In this document: piece by piece, positions 19,063 through 26,293 of the stretch
How the letters are laid out: every line of letters starts with the position of its first letter
How positions within the stretch are numbered: position 1 is the first letter of the stretch
Sequence record: NC_101838.1
Direction: 5' to 3' (one strand)
DNA length: 64,000 bases
DNA from: a phage
The notes under the pieces: generated by a model
Database searches by the model: none
Seen by the model: the letters and a program-made list of their open reading frames with translations, nothing else
What the model was told of the DNA's origin: nothing
Program-made: the position numbers and the translations under genes

Positions 19063-20544
19063 TTACTTAGCGTACTCGATTAATTCCACAGTTTTCCCAA
19101 AGCTCGGGATATAATTTTTATTATACCCTTCGGTGAGAACCCATAAAGTATCGTACTTTTTCCACTTGTTGTCAACAGCCTTTTGTTCAAAGTTATGCTC
19201 AAAGTAGAGGTCGGTAAGGACGATGACATCTTTTGCATTCGGTATGTTAGCATCCAGATACTCGAACACGCAGGCGGCTGTTGTGCCCCATGTTGAGTGG
19301 ACCTCATAGTTAATCATCTCATCGATGTTACCGCGAGTGTATACTTTAACCTCTCCAACCTCCGTTGACCAACAGAACATAGTAACCTTAAACTCTTTAT
19401 ACAAATTGCACAACCCGGTGATCTCATTGAACATTTTCTTTAAAGTTCTTTGTGAGATCGACCCAGAAACGTCTAAAGCCACTACAATATCTATAGTGTT
19501 TTCCGGATTACGACCAGGAACAATAACGTGTTGATTCTTGTTTATAGCTCCAACTTTTCGCATTGTGGTGGTCAAAGACCCAGATCGGCGACCAGGTTTT
19601 CTGTAGGTTAACTCAGCCTTTCTTTTAGATAACATACGTTGCTTAATAATATCTATATAATTGATTACAGGCTTGCCTCTGTTTTTGACAAACTCGCGCA
19701 CCGCCTCGGGACAACGACCTCCTGAAGCTTGCATTGCTGCTTCCAACATGTCACCAGAGTCCTGCATGGCCTGATCTTTGTCAGATTGACTGATTACTGG
19801 TTGCGGCTGATCATACCCCATAGCCTTTCCAAGATCATCACTAGTGCCACCGTTCCCGCTCATGTGATCATCGGTTTGTCGTTTATCTCCTTGGGAGTTC
19901 TCACCTTTACCGTTCTTACTTTTACCGCCATTCTGATCTCTTTGTTTATCAAGAACTGCATAGACGTTCTCAGCAATCCATCCATGAAACCTCATGTCGC
20001 AGTAGCAATTAGCTAAGAAGCCAAAAGGCTTACCTTTTACGAACTCAGTGCTTTTCCCCTTCGGGAAGAAAACACAAGGAGGCTTGCTAAAGTCAACCAC
20101 AAGACCTGTGTTGATAACGTGATCACAAGCAATATTGAACAGTTCCGGCTCAAAGCTTTTACCACGGACCAGATGATCACAGATAATATGCCCCACCTCA
20201 TGTGACAGAAGAAAGGCCACCTCTTTCACAGATTTTGGGGAATAGAAAACCTCAGCCATCTCAAACTGCTTGTCAGTCAGAGATGCTTTAAGAATGGTTT
20301 TACGCTCATCCGCCAACCCCATAATGAACTCAGGGCTGTAGTAGATGCGTTTATGGTCGGTTGCCATGGTGGAGCACCATGTGTGGTTTTCTACGAACTG
20401 CAACCCTGACAGTAGTGTGCCATAAAACGGCAGCTTTTCAAGGAGATACATACGTGCAGCCTGCAACATTCTCAGGGCATCATCTTTCTGCGAGGCAATG
20501 ATTTCTGAACTTCTGCTATCCATTAAAACTCCAGAAGGGGCCAT
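19063..20544 (-). CDS. VWA-domain protein with N-terminal metallopeptidase-like HExxH region (CobT/DUF2201-like partner of MoxR ATPases)
   Basis: HEVGHIICDH motif in N-terminal half; MIDAS-like VVALDVSGSIS in C-terminal half. Confidence 0.6.
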   Translation of the reverse strand: MAPSGVLMDSRSSEIIASQKDDALRMLQAARMYLLEKLPFYGTLLSGLQFVENHTWCSTMATDHKRIYYSPEFIMGLADERKTILKASLTDKQFEMAEVFYSPKSVKEVAFLLSHEVGHIICDHLVRGKSFEPELFNIACDHVINTGLVVDFSKPPCVFFPKGKSTEFVKGKPFGFLANCYCDMRFHGWIAENVYAVLDKQRDQNGGKSKNGKGENSQGDKRQTDDHMSGNGGTSDDLGKAMGYDQPQPVISQSDKDQAMQDSGDMLEAAMQASGGRCPEAVREFVKNRGKPVINYIDIIKQRMLSKRKAELTYRKPGRRSGSLTTTMRKVGAINKNQHVIVPGRNPENTIDIVVALDVSGSISQRTLKKMFNEITGLCNLYKEFKVTMFCWSTEVGEVKVYTRGNIDEMINYEVHSTWGTTAACVFEYLDANIPNAKDVIVLTDLYFEHNFEQKAVDNKWKKYDTLWVLTEGYNKNYIPSFGKTVELIEYAK

Positions 20545-20556
20545 TGGCCCCTGTCA

Positions 20557-21534
20557 TTATTTAACGTGTTTGAAAATACCTGCCAACTCGGTCATTGTCA
20601 TGCGGGTGGTCTTCATAAGATCTGTCATAGCTTTCTCCATAATTGGAGATACTACCATAAAGTTTCCTTTAGTGAAACCTTTATTCCAGTCGGTCACCAA
20701 CAGGGGTTTAAGTCCAGCTCCAAGACGTTCACCAGTTAAAGCACAGCATTTGCGAATATACGAACTCTTAAATTGGCTGAATGACAGATCAACTTTCATA
20801 CCTACATCGTAGAACGTTTGACAATAGAAAGTGTAAGCTTTGGCAATCTCAACATCATCAGGTAGTGCAGGAACCTCTTCTGTAAGCTCCTCTTCGACCT
20901 CCTGAGTCTCTTTTTCCTCTTCATGCACCTGTTGCGTCATTTCTTCAATCTCTTCTGTGATAGGCTCGTTTACAATGTCGGAAATGTGCTTCTTGGGTGC
21001 ACGATAAGTAACTTTAGACATCGGTAGCATATCTTCCTCCTCTTCTTCGTCAAAGAGTGCTAGTTTATCCTCTTCCGTTCCATATTGCAAGATGAAATCT
21101 TCAAAAGTATAATCACCTTTCAATTTCTCCATACGCTCTTCGCTCAGGTGGAGCATCATCTGCTGGACAATTTTTCGATCAGTTTCGTCTTTAATCAAGA
21201 CTGCAGTCTTTTTATCTACCAGACAGTCCTTTAGAGAGTTGCATCTCAATCCCACCACACAACAGTTATCAACCGCATAAGGACCTTCATCATCTATCCG
21301 CTCCAGGGATGGGTAGAAAGGATTCCCCAGCCCGTTTTCATCTGTGTGCATGTCAAAAGGTATAAGGGTATAGTCGCATACTCCATCTCCTAAAAGTTTT
21401 TTACCAAATAGGAGGTATTCTTCCCATGACAGGTCGAACTCTATATCTCGTTTCCGTGCGTTATTCTGTTTGCGTCTATATTTTTTGAGCAAGCGCTCTA
21501 ACTCTTCTGGTGTATAATATTTTTCAAGATTCAT
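20557..21534 (-). CDS. hypothetical protein, N-terminal region with possible HNH/His-Me-finger-like nuclease motif
   Basis: ORF track 20557..21600 begins with TTG without SD; ATG at 21534 follows GAGAGA and a TTGACA-17-TACGAT promoter; motif CxY...SLERIDDEGPYAVDNC...N.LK; contains the 27-bp repeat at 20998-21024. Confidence 0.45.
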   Translation of the reverse strand: MNLEKYYTPEELERLLKKYRRKQNNARKRDIEFDLSWEEYLLFGKKLLGDGVCDYTLIPFDMHTDENGLGNPFYPSLERIDDEGPYAVDNCCVVGLRCNSLKDCLVDKKTAVLIKDETDRKIVQQMMLHLSEERMEKLKGDYTFEDFILQYGTEEDKLALFDEEEEEDMLPMSKVTYRAPKKHISDIVNEPITEEIEEMTQQVHEEEKETQEVEEELTEEVPALPDDVEIAKAYTFYCQTFYDVGMKVDLSFSQFKSSYIRKCCALTGERLGAGLKPLLVTDWNKGFTKGNFMVVSPIMEKAMTDLMKTTRMTMTELAGIFKHVK

Positions 21535-21565
21535 GAGTCGTCTCTCGTGCTCTGTAAGTGAAGAA

Positions 21566-21594
21566 ATCGTATCAATTGTCTCAACAGATGTCAA
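21566..21594 (-). promoter_or_regulatory. sigma70-like promoter for leftward block
   Basis: Minus strand TTGACA - 17 nt - TACGAT upstream of ATG at 21534. Confidence 0.35.
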
Positions 21595-21607
21595 CATCAA
21601 AAACGTG

Positions 21608-21636
21608 TTGACTTTACTCTAACTCCACAATATAGT
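21608..21636 (+). promoter_or_regulatory. sigma70-like promoter for rightward block
   Basis: TTGACT - 17 nt - TATAGT, 40 nt upstream of ATG at 21677. Confidence 0.45.
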
Positions 21637-21676
21637 GCACCCATTCGAAAGAAAACTAACATAGGAGCACTTACTT

Positions 21677-22576
21677 ATGGCAAATCTTAACAGTTTTAGT
21701 ACGCGGTGGAAACAGGACATAACAACCAATCTTTCAGCTGGGGACATCCTTTCTGCAATTTACGAGGCTTTAGATGATAAAGCTACTTCAAAAGCGGTTT
21801 GTACCAACCCATTAATTCCTATAGTGATGAAGGTTATTGAGCGTAGATTGGTATCTGGGTCTGATAAGTGGACATATTTAGATAATGAAGGACACACCTA
21901 TTCCAATGGGTATGTCGATATAAAAGTAGAATACGCGGTATCATACCGCCGGAGCGGTTCTGTAACTTTCAACTTCTCTGGAGGTTTTCGATCTCTGGCC
22001 ACCTCACCTTTTGTTTCCTCAGAGGAGAAGTATGAGCTGCCATTTCTTTGGATGATGGCTAACGCGACAGGAAAAACCCCCGTTAGCATCCGAGTAAAAT
22101 ACAACTACAACGGATCTAGTAAGATCTATGCCGAAAGTGTCTCAGCAAGTTTTTATTTTGTGATGGGGGATGGAATCCTCAAACATATAAAGATGTGCGA
22201 TATGCATGATGTTATAAATGAAGTGACTGATAAGAATGTTCTAGTGAAAGACCTCAACAATTTTTATACACCCGGAGACTATTACGTCAGCCGTCCACTG
22301 TGCATCTTTAATGCCGCACACCCTCTAGGTGAGTATTTGATCGCCAATAGCGATATTGCCAATAACCGCTTCGAGGTAGCAAGAGTTCAGAATGAGGTAT
22401 TGACATCTTGCAAGAGCGGTGATAAGTTTACCGAAGAAGAGATGGGTGTTTTAGAAATGATGGGATATAAGTGTAGCCTTTGGGTAGATGAGGTGTTCAA
22501 TGATTGCATCTATGGACAGGATATTTACCCATTAAAGAAGTATACTGATTCCAGTTTAATTTACGCGGAGATTTGA
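21677..22576 (+). CDS. hypothetical protein (299 aa)
   Basis: AGGAG SD; ORF track. Confidence 0.5.
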   Translation: MANLNSFSTRWKQDITTNLSAGDILSAIYEALDDKATSKAVCTNPLIPIVMKVIERRLVSGSDKWTYLDNEGHTYSNGYVDIKVEYAVSYRRSGSVTFNFSGGFRSLATSPFVSSEEKYELPFLWMMANATGKTPVSIRVKYNYNGSSKIYAESVSASFYFVMGDGILKHIKMCDMHDVINEVTDKNVLVKDLNNFYTPGDYYVSRPLCIFNAAHPLGEYLIANSDIANNRFEVARVQNEVLTSCKSGDKFTEEEMGVLEMMGYKCSLWVDEVFNDCIYGQDIYPLKKYTDSSLIYAEI

Positions 22577-22851
22577 CTATGATGAAGTCATGTGGTAGTG
22601 TATATTATGTTGGTGAGAATGTTCAGGCAGATAGTGTGTGGAAATCCATTAAGTCCACCACCGATGATGCCTTTCTGAGCGGGTTATGTTTTCCCAGCCC
22701 AGGGGACACTCTCCCTTACCCTGGAGATTTTGTTGTCAACAAGATGGACGGTTATACCGTGTGCCTGATGGTTGAAAAAATCTTTTTAGACACTAGACAC
22801 AATCACCGTCTTGTGTTAAAATTTCAAGAATGTAAAATGACAATTGCCTAA
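22573..22851 (+). CDS. hypothetical protein (92 aa)
   Basis: ATGA overlap with upstream gene. Confidence 0.45.
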   Translation: MTMMKSCGSVYYVGENVQADSVWKSIKSTTDDAFLSGLCFPSPGDTLPYPGDFVVNKMDGYTVCLMVEKIFLDTRHNHRLVLKFQECKMTIA

Positions 22852-22864
22852 GGAGACCTTGCCG

Positions 22865-23221
22865 ATGTCTAAAGTTACTTATCGTGCAGCTATTTACTGC
22901 AATGAACACCCAATCAATAATGATGGTCACTGCCTTTTTAAAGAAAATCAATTGGGCTGTATTGTCCTCCCTGATGAAGGGGAAGGTTATCTGATTGCGT
23001 TGACAGGGTTTGAACCTGAAGCTCTGGAAGCCAATCTTGACTACCTGGTAGAGGAGGGTGCTGCAGACCTGGTTGCCAATGGCCTCTCCATAAGCCTTGA
23101 CGAAGTGGAGCGCTTCATGGGCAATTACCGTGTAGTGCGTGAGTTTACTATCGAGGTGGAAACTCCAGAGTGGGGTAGCCATGAAACTAATGCCGAAGAA
23201 AAAGAAGAGGAGGTAGAATAA
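22865..23221 (+). CDS. hypothetical acidic protein; start lies inside the 27-bp repeat
   Basis: AAGGAG SD 10 nt upstream of ATG at 22865; ORF-track start 22844 is TTG. Confidence 0.5.
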   Translation: MSKVTYRAAIYCNEHPINNDGHCLFKENQLGCIVLPDEGEGYLIALTGFEPEALEANLDYLVEEGAADLVANGLSISLDEVERFMGNYRVVREFTIEVETPEWGSHETNAEEKEEEVE

Positions 23222-23478
23222 TGAAAGTGCAGATCTTGACTAATGCCGAGAAGATGTTTATTGAAGATACACCTTTTGAAGCTGGTGAGCTACAGTTCAT
23301 TTATTTTGTTGACTTAGATAAGGTGTTCCCTGCACTGAATCTTGGTCTGGATGAAGTTCCTCATAAGGTTTTGTGCCAAGTTGTTCGTGCATTAGCGGCA
23401 GATGGGGAGTTCCACACCCTTGAAGATGTCCAGACCTACGGGTATCTTGAACTACAACGAGAAGAAGAGGTGGACTGA
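23221..23478 (+). CDS. hypothetical protein (85 aa)
   Basis: ORF track; overlapping stop/start. Confidence 0.45.
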   Translation: MKVQILTNAEKMFIEDTPFEAGELQFIYFVDLDKVFPALNLGLDEVPHKVLCQVVRALAADGEFHTLEDVQTYGYLELQREEEVD

Positions 23479-23480
23479 TA

Positions 23481-23861
23481 ATGGCCCAGTGGAAGACAAC
23501 AGTTGACCTTCATGATCAGTGGTTAGGACGCATCACTGAAGACGGGAAGCTAGTGGAGTGGGACAATAAGCATGTTAGCGAGTTGGCAAGTATTGTAGCT
23601 GGCAAGTTACGCTCCAAGTTCCCTGAACAACTGGATCCTGATAGTTCAAAGTTCGATCCTGAGTTAGAGGATGTTGTATACTACTTCGACACCGTTGATG
23701 ACTACGACGCGTGGTTTGCAGCACGGGAGCTTTACCCACAAGGCTCTGCTATGCGCCAGATGGAAGAAGATTATCCTCCGTGCGAGCAATTTAATAGCGC
23801 AATGACTTGCCTCTACGATTGGGCAGATAAGAACCTTGTCTGGATTCGGACTGCATTCTAG
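23481..23861 (+). CDS. hypothetical protein (126 aa)
   Basis: ORF track. Confidence 0.45.
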   Translation: MAQWKTTVDLHDQWLGRITEDGKLVEWDNKHVSELASIVAGKLRSKFPEQLDPDSSKFDPELEDVVYYFDTVDDYDAWFAARELYPQGSAMRQMEEDYPPCEQFNSAMTCLYDWADKNLVWIRTAF

Positions 23862-23875
23862 CAGGTGGGGCAAGG

Positions 23876-24169
23876 ATGCCACTTAAAAGAGTAATAAACA
23901 TGTTATACCAGAAACACGAACTTTGTGCAGAAAAAGAGTTAAATTTTGACAAAGTTATCCACAGATATTGTTATGGAAAAACCGGAAGACAATTAAGAAG
24001 ATGCACTCCAGCATTCTTTCACCCCAGCAGGCGACTAAGCCCTGAAGAAGCAACAGCAGAAAGGGTTGCATACAACTGGGAAGTTGTGTACGATATTGAC
24101 AGATCCGATGTGACATCTGTTTTGGAAAACTTTGAAAACACTTACACACAAGTAGAGGACTTTTACTAA
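23876..24169 (+). CDS. hypothetical protein (97 aa)
   Basis: ORF track. Confidence 0.4.
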   Translation: MPLKRVINMLYQKHELCAEKELNFDKVIHRYCYGKTGRQLRRCTPAFFHPSRRLSPEEATAERVAYNWEVVYDIDRSDVTSVLENFENTYTQVEDFY

Positions 24170-25353
24170 TGTCAAGAAACGTATTTGAAAGTGGTCAAAT
24201 CACTGTCCGTGAGTTGCCAGCCATCATTCAGTTTGCCCAGCGTCATAACCGATCTGTCCTGATTTTAGGACCAATGGGCGTGGGGAAGAGCCAGGTGATG
24301 AAGCAGATCGCTGATAATATGTTCGGTGAGCGAGATGACAACCTGGTTGACGTGCGGCTGTCAGATAAAGATCCTGCCGACTTATCTGGGCTACCTATCC
24401 CTGTAGAAGCGGATGGAACTACACGTACAGTGTTTGCAATTCCAGAATTTTGGCCTGCAGATCCGGACTGGAGCGGAATTATCTTTCTGGATGAGCTCAC
24501 TCATGCAGATAACTATCTGCAAAAGGTTGCAATGCAGATTATGCTCGACCACAAGTGCGGCACCTATGCATTCCCTAAAGGCTCTGTTTTTGTGGCTGCG
24601 GGTAACCGTTCTACAGATGGTGCGGTTCTTTCGGCGCTCGAAGCCCCTCTGGCTAACCGTTTTATCATTGTAGAAGTTACAAGCAATGCAGAGGTGTTTA
24701 TTGAGGACTACGCATTCCTCAATGGGGTGCACTCCTCTGTAATTGGGTATCTGAAAAGAGTTCCATCAGCTATCGATAATTATGAGGCTATGGCTGAGAT
24801 TAATTGTCCATCTTTTGCCACACCGCGATCTTGGGTTGCTGCATCTGACATCTTGCACGATTTTGACAGCGGTATTATTTCTGACGCTATGGCCCGTGTT
24901 CTTCTGCAAGGTGCTATTGGTCACACTGCAGCGGTAGAGATCTGGACCTACCACACCAAGAAACGCAACTTACCGGAAATCGGTCGGATTATGGCAGGGG
25001 GTTGCAAAGAATACATAGGTCCTAAACAGCCAGACATCTTGTGGATTCTTGGGTCTGAAGGTTGTATCGCTATTCGTAATATGATGGAAAATGCAAGTAT
25101 CTCCGACGAAGATCTTGTTAGCTGTGTAGCAAACTTCCTCGATTTCCTTTGGGAAAATTTCAAGGACGAGAACCGAGATTTTGTATTCTCAGTCTTTATG
25201 GCGATGATGAAACCTAATGCCTTAGGAAATGCCTTGCTTATCGGTAAAGGGCGTGACAAGATCGTTGCTCAACTGATCAAAGCGTACCCAAACCTGATGA
25301 AGATTGTAAAAGAGTTTGGTGAAGAGTTTAGCGCCATTTTAGCTAAAGCTTAA
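24169..25353 (+). CDS. MoxR/CobS-like AAA+ ATPase
   Basis: Walker A GPMGVGKS, Walker B IIFLDELT, AAA_5-like spacing. Confidence 0.7.
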   Translation: MSRNVFESGQITVRELPAIIQFAQRHNRSVLILGPMGVGKSQVMKQIADNMFGERDDNLVDVRLSDKDPADLSGLPIPVEADGTTRTVFAIPEFWPADPDWSGIIFLDELTHADNYLQKVAMQIMLDHKCGTYAFPKGSVFVAAGNRSTDGAVLSALEAPLANRFIIVEVTSNAEVFIEDYAFLNGVHSSVIGYLKRVPSAIDNYEAMAEINCPSFATPRSWVAASDILHDFDSGIISDAMARVLLQGAIGHTAAVEIWTYHTKKRNLPEIGRIMAGGCKEYIGPKQPDILWILGSEGCIAIRNMMENASISDEDLVSCVANFLDFLWENFKDENRDFVFSVFMAMMKPNALGNALLIGKGRDKIVAQLIKAYPNLMKIVKEFGEEFSAILAKA

Positions 25354-25362
25354 GGGGGTTGT

Positions 25363-25743
25363 ATGGCTAAAGTAGGTAAGCGGGGAAATTACCGGGTGGT
25401 ATTGACCGAGGAGCCGGAGAAGGAGTACGAATGCAGCTCCACTTGCGTGATCGATATCCGAGAAAAAGATGTAGATGAAATCTGGTTTAAAATATTAGAC
25501 GCTTGCGACAGCAGTGATTATTTCTTCATCTATGTCAACGATAAGGCTGGATTCTTCCATGACGACGGAGAGTTGCCGTATGAAATCTATGAACTTGTAG
25601 AGGCTTGCCATCGTGGAGATGCGGAGTTGTTTGGCCTACGGCTGAAAAGCGGTAAATTCTTCTATCAAGATGAGTGCATGAATCTTCATAACTTTGTAGA
25701 GGGAACTTGCAACGATGGAGAGATTTTGGCACACTACGATTAA
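25363..25743 (+). CDS. hypothetical protein (126 aa)
   Basis: ORF track; followed by strong terminator. Confidence 0.45.
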   Translation: MAKVGKRGNYRVVLTEEPEKEYECSSTCVIDIREKDVDEIWFKILDACDSSDYFFIYVNDKAGFFHDDGELPYEIYELVEACHRGDAELFGLRLKSGKFFYQDECMNLHNFVEGTCNDGEILAHYD

Positions 25744-25792: not shown

Positions 25793-26293
25793 GTGAAAAT
25801 TAAGATCTTTGCTATTATTTTGAGCGCACTTTTATCGCTGCCTGTTGTTGCAGCACCAAAACAAAAAGTATATCATACTTGCAAGCCATCAGATACTAAG
25901 GAAAACATTCTGGCATGCAATATCTACAGGGAAGCTAGAGGAGATGGCACGATGGGTATGCTGGCATCTGGGTTTGCCACACTAAACAGGAAATCCCACC
26001 CTAAATACCCAGACACTATAAGAAAGATTGTCTACCAACCTAACCAGTTTTCGTGGACAAACCACGGCAAAACTTTTAAGGTGACAGAAAAAGATTCATG
26101 GGATCACGCTAAAAGTCTTGCAAAGATGCTTCTAAAGGTCTATAATAACAACCATGTTGCATACATGGCTATGGATATAACAGGTGGAGCAACACACTAC
26201 CATACAACCAAAGTACGACCGAAGTGGGCAAAAAAGATGCAGAGGACAGCTCAATTCGGGAGTCATATCTACTACAAGGAGCGCAATAAATGA
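25793..26293 (+). CDS. secreted SleB-like cell wall hydrolase
   Basis: N-terminal signal peptide MKIKIFAIILSALLSLPVVAA; motif YREARGDG...LNR...YQPNQFS typical of SleB/Hydrolase_2 family; GTG start after GGAG. Confidence 0.65.
   Translation: MKIKIFAIILSALLSLPVVAAPKQKVYHTCKPSDTKENILACNIYREARGDGTMGMLASGFATLNRKSHPKYPDTIRKIVYQPNQFSWTNHGKTFKVTEKDSWDHAKSLAKMLLKVYNNNHVAYMAMDITGGATHYHTTKVRPKWAKKMQRTAQFGSHIYYKERNK

Follow-up and report, generated by a model that had tools for sequence, protein, structure and literature searches.

The 64,000-nucleotide stretch of phage DNA analysed here (sequence record NC_101838.1, hereafter the window) carries, between positions 19,063 and 25,353, one gene for a MoxR-class AAA+ ATPase and one for a protein that combines a putative zincin-type metallopeptidase domain with a von Willebrand factor A (VWA) domain. 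In related phages the two genes are mostly direct neighbours, and their separation in the window is a derived character of one clade. We consider it rather probable that the ATPase and the VWA-zincin protein are two subunits of a single machine that would capture, remodel and cleave a target protein, split on the genome yet co-expressed early in infection, with an early or host target favoured. The open reading frames (ORFs) are located at 19063..20544 on the minus strand (VWA/zincin, 493 aa) and at 24169..25353 on the plus strand (ATPase, 394 aa). They are divergent with 3624 nt between them, which agrees with the opposite strands and the distance of about 3.6 kb given in a preliminary description of this DNA. 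A total of 121 phage records match the 6.4-kb region with 90-99% identity, nearly all of them rV5-like Escherichia phages of the genus Vequintavirus. The annotation of the relative MaxBurger (Bas54) gives the VWA gene as 'putative metallopeptidase' and the ATPase gene as 'ATPase (MoxR ATPase)'; the GenBank labels for the VWA gene are 'putative metallopeptidase' and 'VWA-like domain containing protein'.

In the VWA protein, an N-terminal DUF2201_N putative metallopeptidase domain is joined through a low-complexity linker to a DUF2201 VWA domain at the C-terminus. The suggested relation to DUF2201 was borne out by the Pfam scan, in which both domains were found above their gathering thresholds and in this N-to-C order: PF13203 (DUF2201_N) at residues 95-321 (2.3e-28, 100 bits against a cut-off of 23.2) and PF09967 (DUF2201) at residues 353-488 (3.6e-11, 43.7 bits against a cut-off of 26.4). 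PF13203 is present in all 65 database homologues and PF09967 in 64 of them, the homologue P0180 having PF13203 only. The predicted zinc-binding and catalytic motif HEVGHIICDH (20173..20202, minus strand) contains H115, E116, H119 and H124 in the numbering of the 493-aa ORF. The VWA domain (19075..19497, minus strand) possesses a complete metal ion-dependent adhesion site (MIDAS) made up of D358-x-S360-x-S362 (DVSGS, 19459-19473), T421 and D445. The HExxHxxxxH motif and the five residues of the MIDAS show no variation in two alignments, of 34 and of 62 sequences, that extend to about 20% identity; 104 of 104 full-length homologues from the fetched loci possess them too. The combination of an HExxH region with a MIDAS motif that had been noticed in the window is thus a feature of the whole family, and only the start of the gene has to be moved. 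The true start is probably the ATG at 20523 rather than that at 20544, as judged from the sequence, because GGAG lies five nt upstream of it and both GenBank and the database cluster agree with it, while the ATG at 20544 falls in the loop of a hairpin. The gene then extends over 19063..20523 (minus strand), encodes 486 aa and corresponds by position to rV5 gene 12, one after the Srd homologue gp11.

An AF2 model of the VWA protein, with a pLDDT of 81 and residues 207-234 disordered, confirms the Rossmann-like VWA fold, for which NorD in its complex with NorQ was the top Foldseek match and the VWA domain of BchD was also matched; a direct sequence search of the protein against PDB chains gave no match. 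Just ahead of the VWA domain lies a basic motif, TYRKPGRRSG (19579..19608, minus strand; consensus TYxRPxRR), in which R319 and R320 are nearly invariant and which could be an ATPase-engaging or processing element.

The ATPase (24169..25353, plus strand, 394 aa) is the homologue of rV5 gp4, which was named a MoxR ATPase already in 2013, and has a helical C-terminal extension after the AAA+ lid. Walker A (GPMGVGKS, 24268-24291) and Walker B (IIFLDE, 24478-24495), both on the plus strand, are followed by AGNR, R164 and R220 further along, and all of these are invariant in alignments of 29 and 74 sequences. Homologues (E ~1e-45, ~34% identity) carry PF07726 (AAA_3) and PF07728 (AAA_5), and some of them PF20030 (bpMoxR). 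Among solved proteins, Midasin is the best relative by the profile of the ATPase family (7e-10), and the nearest solved folds of the modelled protein are CbbQ and NorQ, i.e. those of the MoxR class rather than of other AAA+ clades. In a direct sequence search against PDB chains the match was limited to the surroundings of the P-loop (ClpB/ClpC). The protein is placed among the AAA+ ATPases of the MoxR class by an assignment that is transitive, through its homologues, and structural, through the predicted fold; the MoxR-like ATPase with clear Walker motifs of the preliminary description is retained on both counts.

The description of the pair as MoxR/CobS-like holds in part. A MoxR ATPase and a VWA partner are present, but the CobS/CobT part could not be kept, since no CobS or CobT family model matched in Pfam and NCBIfam scans of both proteins, nor among the Pfam domains recorded for 185 homologues, and CobT is not known to have an HExxH peptidase domain. 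CobS/CobT shares only the general logic of a MoxR-related AAA+ ATPase with a VWA partner. We give a very low probability to a function of the module as a chaperone for metal insertion or cofactor loading, after the manner of CobS/CobT, NorQ/NorD or BchI/BchD, by which it would activate a metalloenzyme such as a phage enzyme of nucleotide metabolism instead of cutting a target. The nearest solved folds, CbbQ/NorQ for the ATPase and the VWA domain of NorD, with that of BchD, for its partner, would fit such a function, and cyanophages carry cobS. Against it, a match to the CobS, CobT, CbbQ_C or NorD families was neither obtained for either protein nor listed for the homologues. NorQ-NorD and CbbQ-CbbO, which act on a metalloenzyme or on rubisco, share 9-19% identity with the window proteins, and signatures of NorD, CbbO and CbbQ_C are absent from the window proteins and from the Pfam domains of their homologues. 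Furthermore, the invariant N-terminal HExxHxxxxH domain points to hydrolysis, and a zincin domain of this kind is absent from the description of NorD and CbbO (PMC13036017).

Other known systems differ more. Midasin (Rea1) joins an AAA_5 ring and a MIDAS domain in one chain, but it is a eukaryotic protein of 550 kDa with six fused AAA modules and no peptidase domain that acts in ribosome biogenesis. No conserved third gene as in the MoxR-vWA ternary conflict systems (VMAP/iSTAND/FtsH/beta-propeller; Kaur et al. 2020) was found, the flanks of the adjacent-type loci being different from one another, and no propeller protein was seen at the window, though PF20030 (bpMoxR) occurs in a few distant homologues of the ATPase. 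PADLOC gave only P-loop matches at noise level, and an assignment to defence or anti-defence was rejected. The same two-protein domain architecture is found in the MoxR-vWA pairs of group 2.2 jumbo phages, in which the vWA is fused to an N-terminal metallopeptidase (PMC7824862), and tblastn located homologues of both window proteins in the jumbo phages phAPEC6, Ecwhy_1, Serratia BF, fEgEco12 and PA5oct. The window phage is a 137-kb Vequintavirus and no jumbo phage.

The pairing of the two genes was surveyed in 39 viral loci anchored on the VWA gene and 80 loci anchored on the ATPase gene, in which the genes were located by hidden Markov models made from the alignments, giving 112 distinct loci with both. 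The ATPase gene precedes the VWA gene on one strand in 91 of the 112 loci, with a median gap of 119 nt; the gap is 250 nt or less in 76 of these 91 and exceeds 1 kb in two only. The statement that such pairs are normally adjacent is therefore true for this family. The genes lie on opposite strands, 3496-5251 nt apart, in 21 of the 112 loci, and all 21 come from a single clade, in which the VWA protein has 39-99% identity to that of the window. The members of the clade, as judged by tblastn, include Vequintavirus, Seunavirus (4MG, PVP-SE1) and Mydovirus-type phages of Klebsiella and Proteus. Certrevirus (Cronobacter phage PBES 02) and Septuagintavirus (phage A73), the closest outgroups and of the same subfamily, have the adjacent form, with 33-38% identity and gaps of 67-80 nt. 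Uncultivated phage contigs and the chromosome of Sulfurivermis fontis likewise place a MoxR-class ATPase gene directly upstream of a DUF2201_N+DUF2201 gene on the same strand. Among loci from metagenome-assembled genomes, of which the search pattern, being specific to the phage subfamily, yielded ten only, nine have the adjacent form. In nearly all ATPase-anchored loci without a VWA match, the contig breaks off no more than about 200 nt from the ATPase gene; the exceptions, L064 and L111, have 1.1-1.6 kb of downstream sequence with no VWA match. We conclude that adjacency as ATPase followed by VWA on one strand is ancestral and that the split is a derived, clade-specific character. Synteny in related phages, compared as had been suggested, thus gives adjacency in distant relatives and a split confined to the rV5/Seunavirus/Mydovirus-type clade.

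With tblastn, VWA relatives were found in 624 of 50,697 phage records and ATPase relatives in 812, the latter count probably including unrelated AAA+ proteins. These relatives span Vequintavirinae, N4-like phages, jumbo phages and a cyanophage. The bacterial DUF2201_N+DUF2201 proteins with an upstream AAA_5 ATPase, of the Sulfurivermis fontis type (L005), share the families, the motifs and the ATPase-VWA gene order. However, bacterial DUF2201 proteins are only 22-25% identical to the window protein, are encoded in a chromosomal housekeeping context, and do not have the insertion of about 40 residues and the long Gly/Asp/Lys-rich linker of the Vequintavirinae proteins. In contrast to all sampled adjacent forms, which are co-directional neighbours, the window pair is unlinked and divergently transcribed.

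In the split clade the VWA gene has acquired a different neighbour. It always lies zero to two genes downstream of a gene for an Srd-like protein, and in the window this gene (20557..21534, minus strand, 325 aa from the annotated start, 'anti-sigma factor', homologue of rV5 gp11) is directly upstream of the VWA gene. The Srd-like protein matches phrog_3118, phrog_4592 ('decoy of host sigma70') and phrog_1400 ('Srd anti-sigma factor'), and the Srd-like-VWA synteny was also seen in L013, L014 and L025. The old linkage of the VWA gene to the ATPase gene is thus replaced by a new linkage to the Srd-like gene. One contig, IMGVR_UViG_3300045988_163358 (L014/L128), from an uncultivated relative of rV5 for which megablast gave no match to named phages, goes further. 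Its VWA gene is located at ~103-105 kb and its ATPase gene at ~4-5 kb on the same strand, so that a distance of 36 kb or more separates the two even if the map is circular. In this contig the tail-fibre genes run straight into the ATPase-rIIA-rIIB block, and the Srd-like-VWA block lies elsewhere, together with further genes whose window counterparts are on the minus strand. The Srd-like-VWA block being relocated and co-oriented with the ATPase block shows that it moves as a module.

Two candidate origins of the split were rejected. Inverting the minus-strand block once, in place, would not bring the pair together again, since about 13 genes would still lie between the two. The other candidate was a 27-bp inverted repeat which, according to the preliminary description, is flanked by the two genes. 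The arms are indeed located between them, perfect over 27 bp and coding on both sides: arm 1 (20998-21024, minus strand) encodes PMSKVTYRA within the Srd-like gene, and arm 2 (22862-22888, plus strand) encodes P+MSKVTYRA at the N-terminal end of a plus-strand gene with its start at 22865. The arm in the Srd-like gene is found in roughly half of the Vequintavirus records and is absent from close relatives (L001, L007, L008; MaxBurger). Because the arms lie between the genes and are both coding, and because the Srd-gene arm is polymorphic while the split is shared down to 39% protein identity, the repeat is neither the mediator nor a mark of the split. The polymorphic copy in the Srd-like gene looks rather like a scar of gene conversion or recombination. 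The 1.8-kb segment between the arms, which holds the bidirectional promoter described below, could in principle invert.

The VWA gene is the second gene of a leftward unit that begins with the Srd-like gene, and the ATPase gene is the seventh gene of a rightward unit. A consensus scan predicts back-to-back, near-consensus sigma70-like promoters (21566..21636) in the 142-bp divergent intergenic region between the units. The putative minus promoter (21594->21566) reads TTGACA-17-TACGAT with an extended TG -10, the putative plus promoter (21608->21636) reads TTGACT-17-TATAGT, and the two -35 boxes form a palindrome at 21590-21612. Bidirectional promoters lying between gene 10 and gene 11 have been described for rV5 (PMC3606486). 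With one promoter upstream of each gene, co-expression of the pair has probably been preserved, and from the sequence it is plausible that this takes place early in infection. The literature search found no Vequintavirus transcriptome, and in the CRISPRi-ART paper the EdH4 targets were confined to capsid and rII.

The loss of linkage could also mean that the pair is functionally uncoupled, with the VWA-zincin protein working alone or with the Srd-like protein, the ATPase working alone or with another partner, and the pairing being only historical. The distance of at least 36 kb in one relative, the conserved Srd-like-VWA linkage that took over, and the lack of shared homology between the flanks of split and adjacent forms would all suit this explanation; when the ORFs of L026, L027, L126 and L127 were compared with all window ORFs by blastp and phmmer, only the pair itself matched. 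Nevertheless, we regard uncoupling as improbable. The ATPase and VWA genes and their motifs, the catalytic and MIDAS residues included, are intact in every split-clade genome examined, and no second gene of the VWA family or of the MoxR class came to notice in the window ORFs scanned. In addition, the two proteins diverge in step, and the divergent promoters keep both genes in the same predicted temporal class. The rV5-type clade is in this respect a natural experiment: that the genes are unlinked, by 3.5-5 kb in most cases and by tens of kb once, yet both intact argues for selection on the pair in trans.

In the mechanism that we favour, the ATPase would form a hexameric ring on which the C-terminal VWA domain of the partner would dock, and the MIDAS metal site would grip an acidic residue of the target protein while ATP hydrolysis remodels it. 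These steps are modelled on known systems, and we infer the physical interaction of the two proteins from NorQ-NorD, CbbQ-CbbO and RavA-ViaA. In NorQ-NorD a finger of the NorD VWA domain enters the NorQ pore (PMC13036017), and the general MoxR-vWA logic has been described (PMC7159879). The N-terminal zincin domain would then cut the captured or remodelled target. Fusion of an invariant zincin domain to the adaptor suggests that the client is cleaved; we infer the proteolysis, as well as the nature of the target. In the ancestor of the Vequintavirus, Seunavirus and Mydovirus-type phages, the VWA gene would have left its site downstream of the ATPase gene and joined the Srd-like gene. In the window, the Srd-like-VWA cassette would be transcribed leftward and the ATPase unit rightward, so that both products appear together early. 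The target would more likely be a host protein or a protein of the early or replication phase than a virion protein. This is the weakest step of the mechanism and is suggested by the early-region context, namely the Srd-like gene and rIIA/rIIB here and the DNA-metabolism genes beside the pair in other phages.

The statement that the function of the pair in phages is not established agrees with the literature searched, which offers one prediction (PMC7824862) and no experiment; a search on 'DUF2201' returned incidental mentions only. In that prediction, Iyer et al. 2021 proposed a function for the systems of group 2.2 jumbo phages by analogy with the MoxR-vWA system needed in the tail development of Acidianus two-tailed virus (PMC7824862). 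Applied to the window, the module would be a chaperone and protease of virion assembly, the pair helping to build the head or tail and the metallopeptidase processing structural proteins. We judge this unlikely, though it has the strongest claim among the alternatives. The prediction was published for the same domain architecture (PMC7824862), MoxR-vWA pairs act generally in the maturation of protein complexes (PMC7159879; PMC3893208), and the tail-fibre region of the window borders on the minus-strand block with the VWA gene. On the other hand, each of the two genes has a sigma70-like promoter upstream of it, and the surrounding early region contains the Srd-like gene, beside the VWA gene, as well as rIIA/rIIB and a helicase gene. 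The candidate late-promoter motif of rV5 was derived from sequences upstream of genes 27-66, which were treated as late (PMC3606486). In other phages the adjacent pair adjoins genes for a 5'-3' exonuclease and thymidylate synthase. The virion proteins that the rV5 paper (PMC3606486) names include neither the ATPase nor its VWA partner, though a chaperone need not be packaged.

Several observations weigh against a capture-and-cleavage machine aimed at an early or host target. The published proposal for the same architecture is virion assembly or processing and not early host takeover (PMC7824862). The Foldseek fold search found no solved structural neighbour for the N-terminal domain of the VWA protein, and its profile gave only weak matches to minigluzincin and M48 peptidases; the label 'peptidase' has just two sources, the Pfam family name and the invariant HExxHxxxxH motif. 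The ATPase itself is under every Pfam and NCBIfam cut-off (AAA_5 at 16.7 bits against a cut-off of 22). The promoter scan returned 32 sites where 22 are expected by chance, all of them consensus matches only. The co-divergence of the ATPase and VWA proteins in a mirror-tree comparison (Spearman 0.50) is what is expected for any two vertically inherited genes and is no evidence of interaction.

A bolder version of the mechanism would make the relocation an adaptive, not a neutral, rewiring that captured the VWA-zincin subunit into the conserved Srd-like-VWA cassette, and in which the Srd-like sigma decoy serves as a substrate adaptor and delivers host sigma70/sigmaS or RNA polymerase to the ATP-dependent MoxR-VWA protease of the phage. 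If true, this would be a host-takeover protease assembled from unlinked genes; we hold it to be speculative and quite improbable.

Further features of the region are as follows. Only the N-terminal ~130-240 residues of the Srd-like protein match the Srd, sigma70-decoy and endonuclease-VII-like PHROGs, the rest consisting of an acidic Glu-rich region and then a C-terminal part. The phrog_3118 model has 287 positions, which implies that the window allele of ~325 aa has extra sequence around the PMSKVTYRA segment. Between the Srd-like and VWA genes, a perfect GC-rich palindromic hairpin, AGGGGCCATTGGCCCCT (20536..20552), lies within the 33-nt gap from the Srd-like stop codon to the likely VWA start, with the ATG at 20544 in its loop. 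Since it has no strong T-tract on the minus strand, it may be an element of RNA stability or processing and not a terminator.

Annotation of the Srd-like and VWA genes is affected by a shared label. The VWA protein matches phrog_1314 (8.9e-123), and both this PHROG and phrog_3118 of the Srd-like protein are annotated as 'HNH endonuclease', a label that has spread through many RefSeq and GenBank records. No HNH family match was found in Pfam for either protein, and the domain assignment given above corrects this widespread mislabel of the VWA protein (phrog_1314).

On the plus strand, six genes are located from the promoter to the ATPase gene (21677..24169): a 'putative 1-3 fucosyltransferase' gene (phrog_12338) and five small ORFs. 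The last small ORF overlaps the ATPase start as TAATG, and translation of the ATPase is predicted to be coupled to it. Between the pair, the annotation of MaxBurger/Bas54 lists five hypothetical genes besides those of an 'anti-sigma factor' and a 'putative 1-3 fucosyltransferase'; 3' of the ATPase gene it has a cell-wall hydrolase, rIIA, rIIB and a helicase. Directly 3' of the ATPase gene in the window, a small acidic protein of 126 aa is encoded at 25363-25743 (plus strand); its rV5 counterpart, gp3, is homologous to the hypothetical T5.083 of phage T5 (Table S3 of PMC3606486). It is followed at 25793-26293 (plus strand) by a SleB-type cell-wall hydrolase (Pfam Hydrolase_2, 2.1e-19), which looks secreted and has a hydrophobic segment resembling a signal at its N-terminus. 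The hydrolase gene lies in the early region, directly upstream of rIIA, and overlaps the rIIA start; the lysin (gp89) is located elsewhere in the genome according to the rV5 paper (PMC3606486). Sixteen unannotated 'Campylobacter phage' records (host Campylobacter jejuni; e.g. MG065646.1, MG065647.1) are 95-96% identical to the region and are probably coliphage contaminants or records with mislabelled hosts.

The components of the pair are annotated in public records, and the module was described in 2021 (PMC7824862). In the literature searched, three points appear to be undescribed: that the 'metallopeptidase' and the 'MoxR ATPase' of Vequintavirus are the two halves of the jumbo-phage module, that their separation is a clade-specific derived state within Vequintavirinae, and that the VWA gene has a new linkage to the Srd-like gene. 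The accepted view of how MoxR-VWA systems work is not changed by these findings. The early-region context and the Srd-like linkage nevertheless offer an alternative to the published virion-assembly hypothesis. The module is among the more widespread uncharacterised two-gene systems of large virulent phages. The split makes E. coli phages such as rV5, EdH4 and the BASEL Vequintaviruses convenient and genetically tractable, as either gene can be deleted there with no polar effect on its partner.

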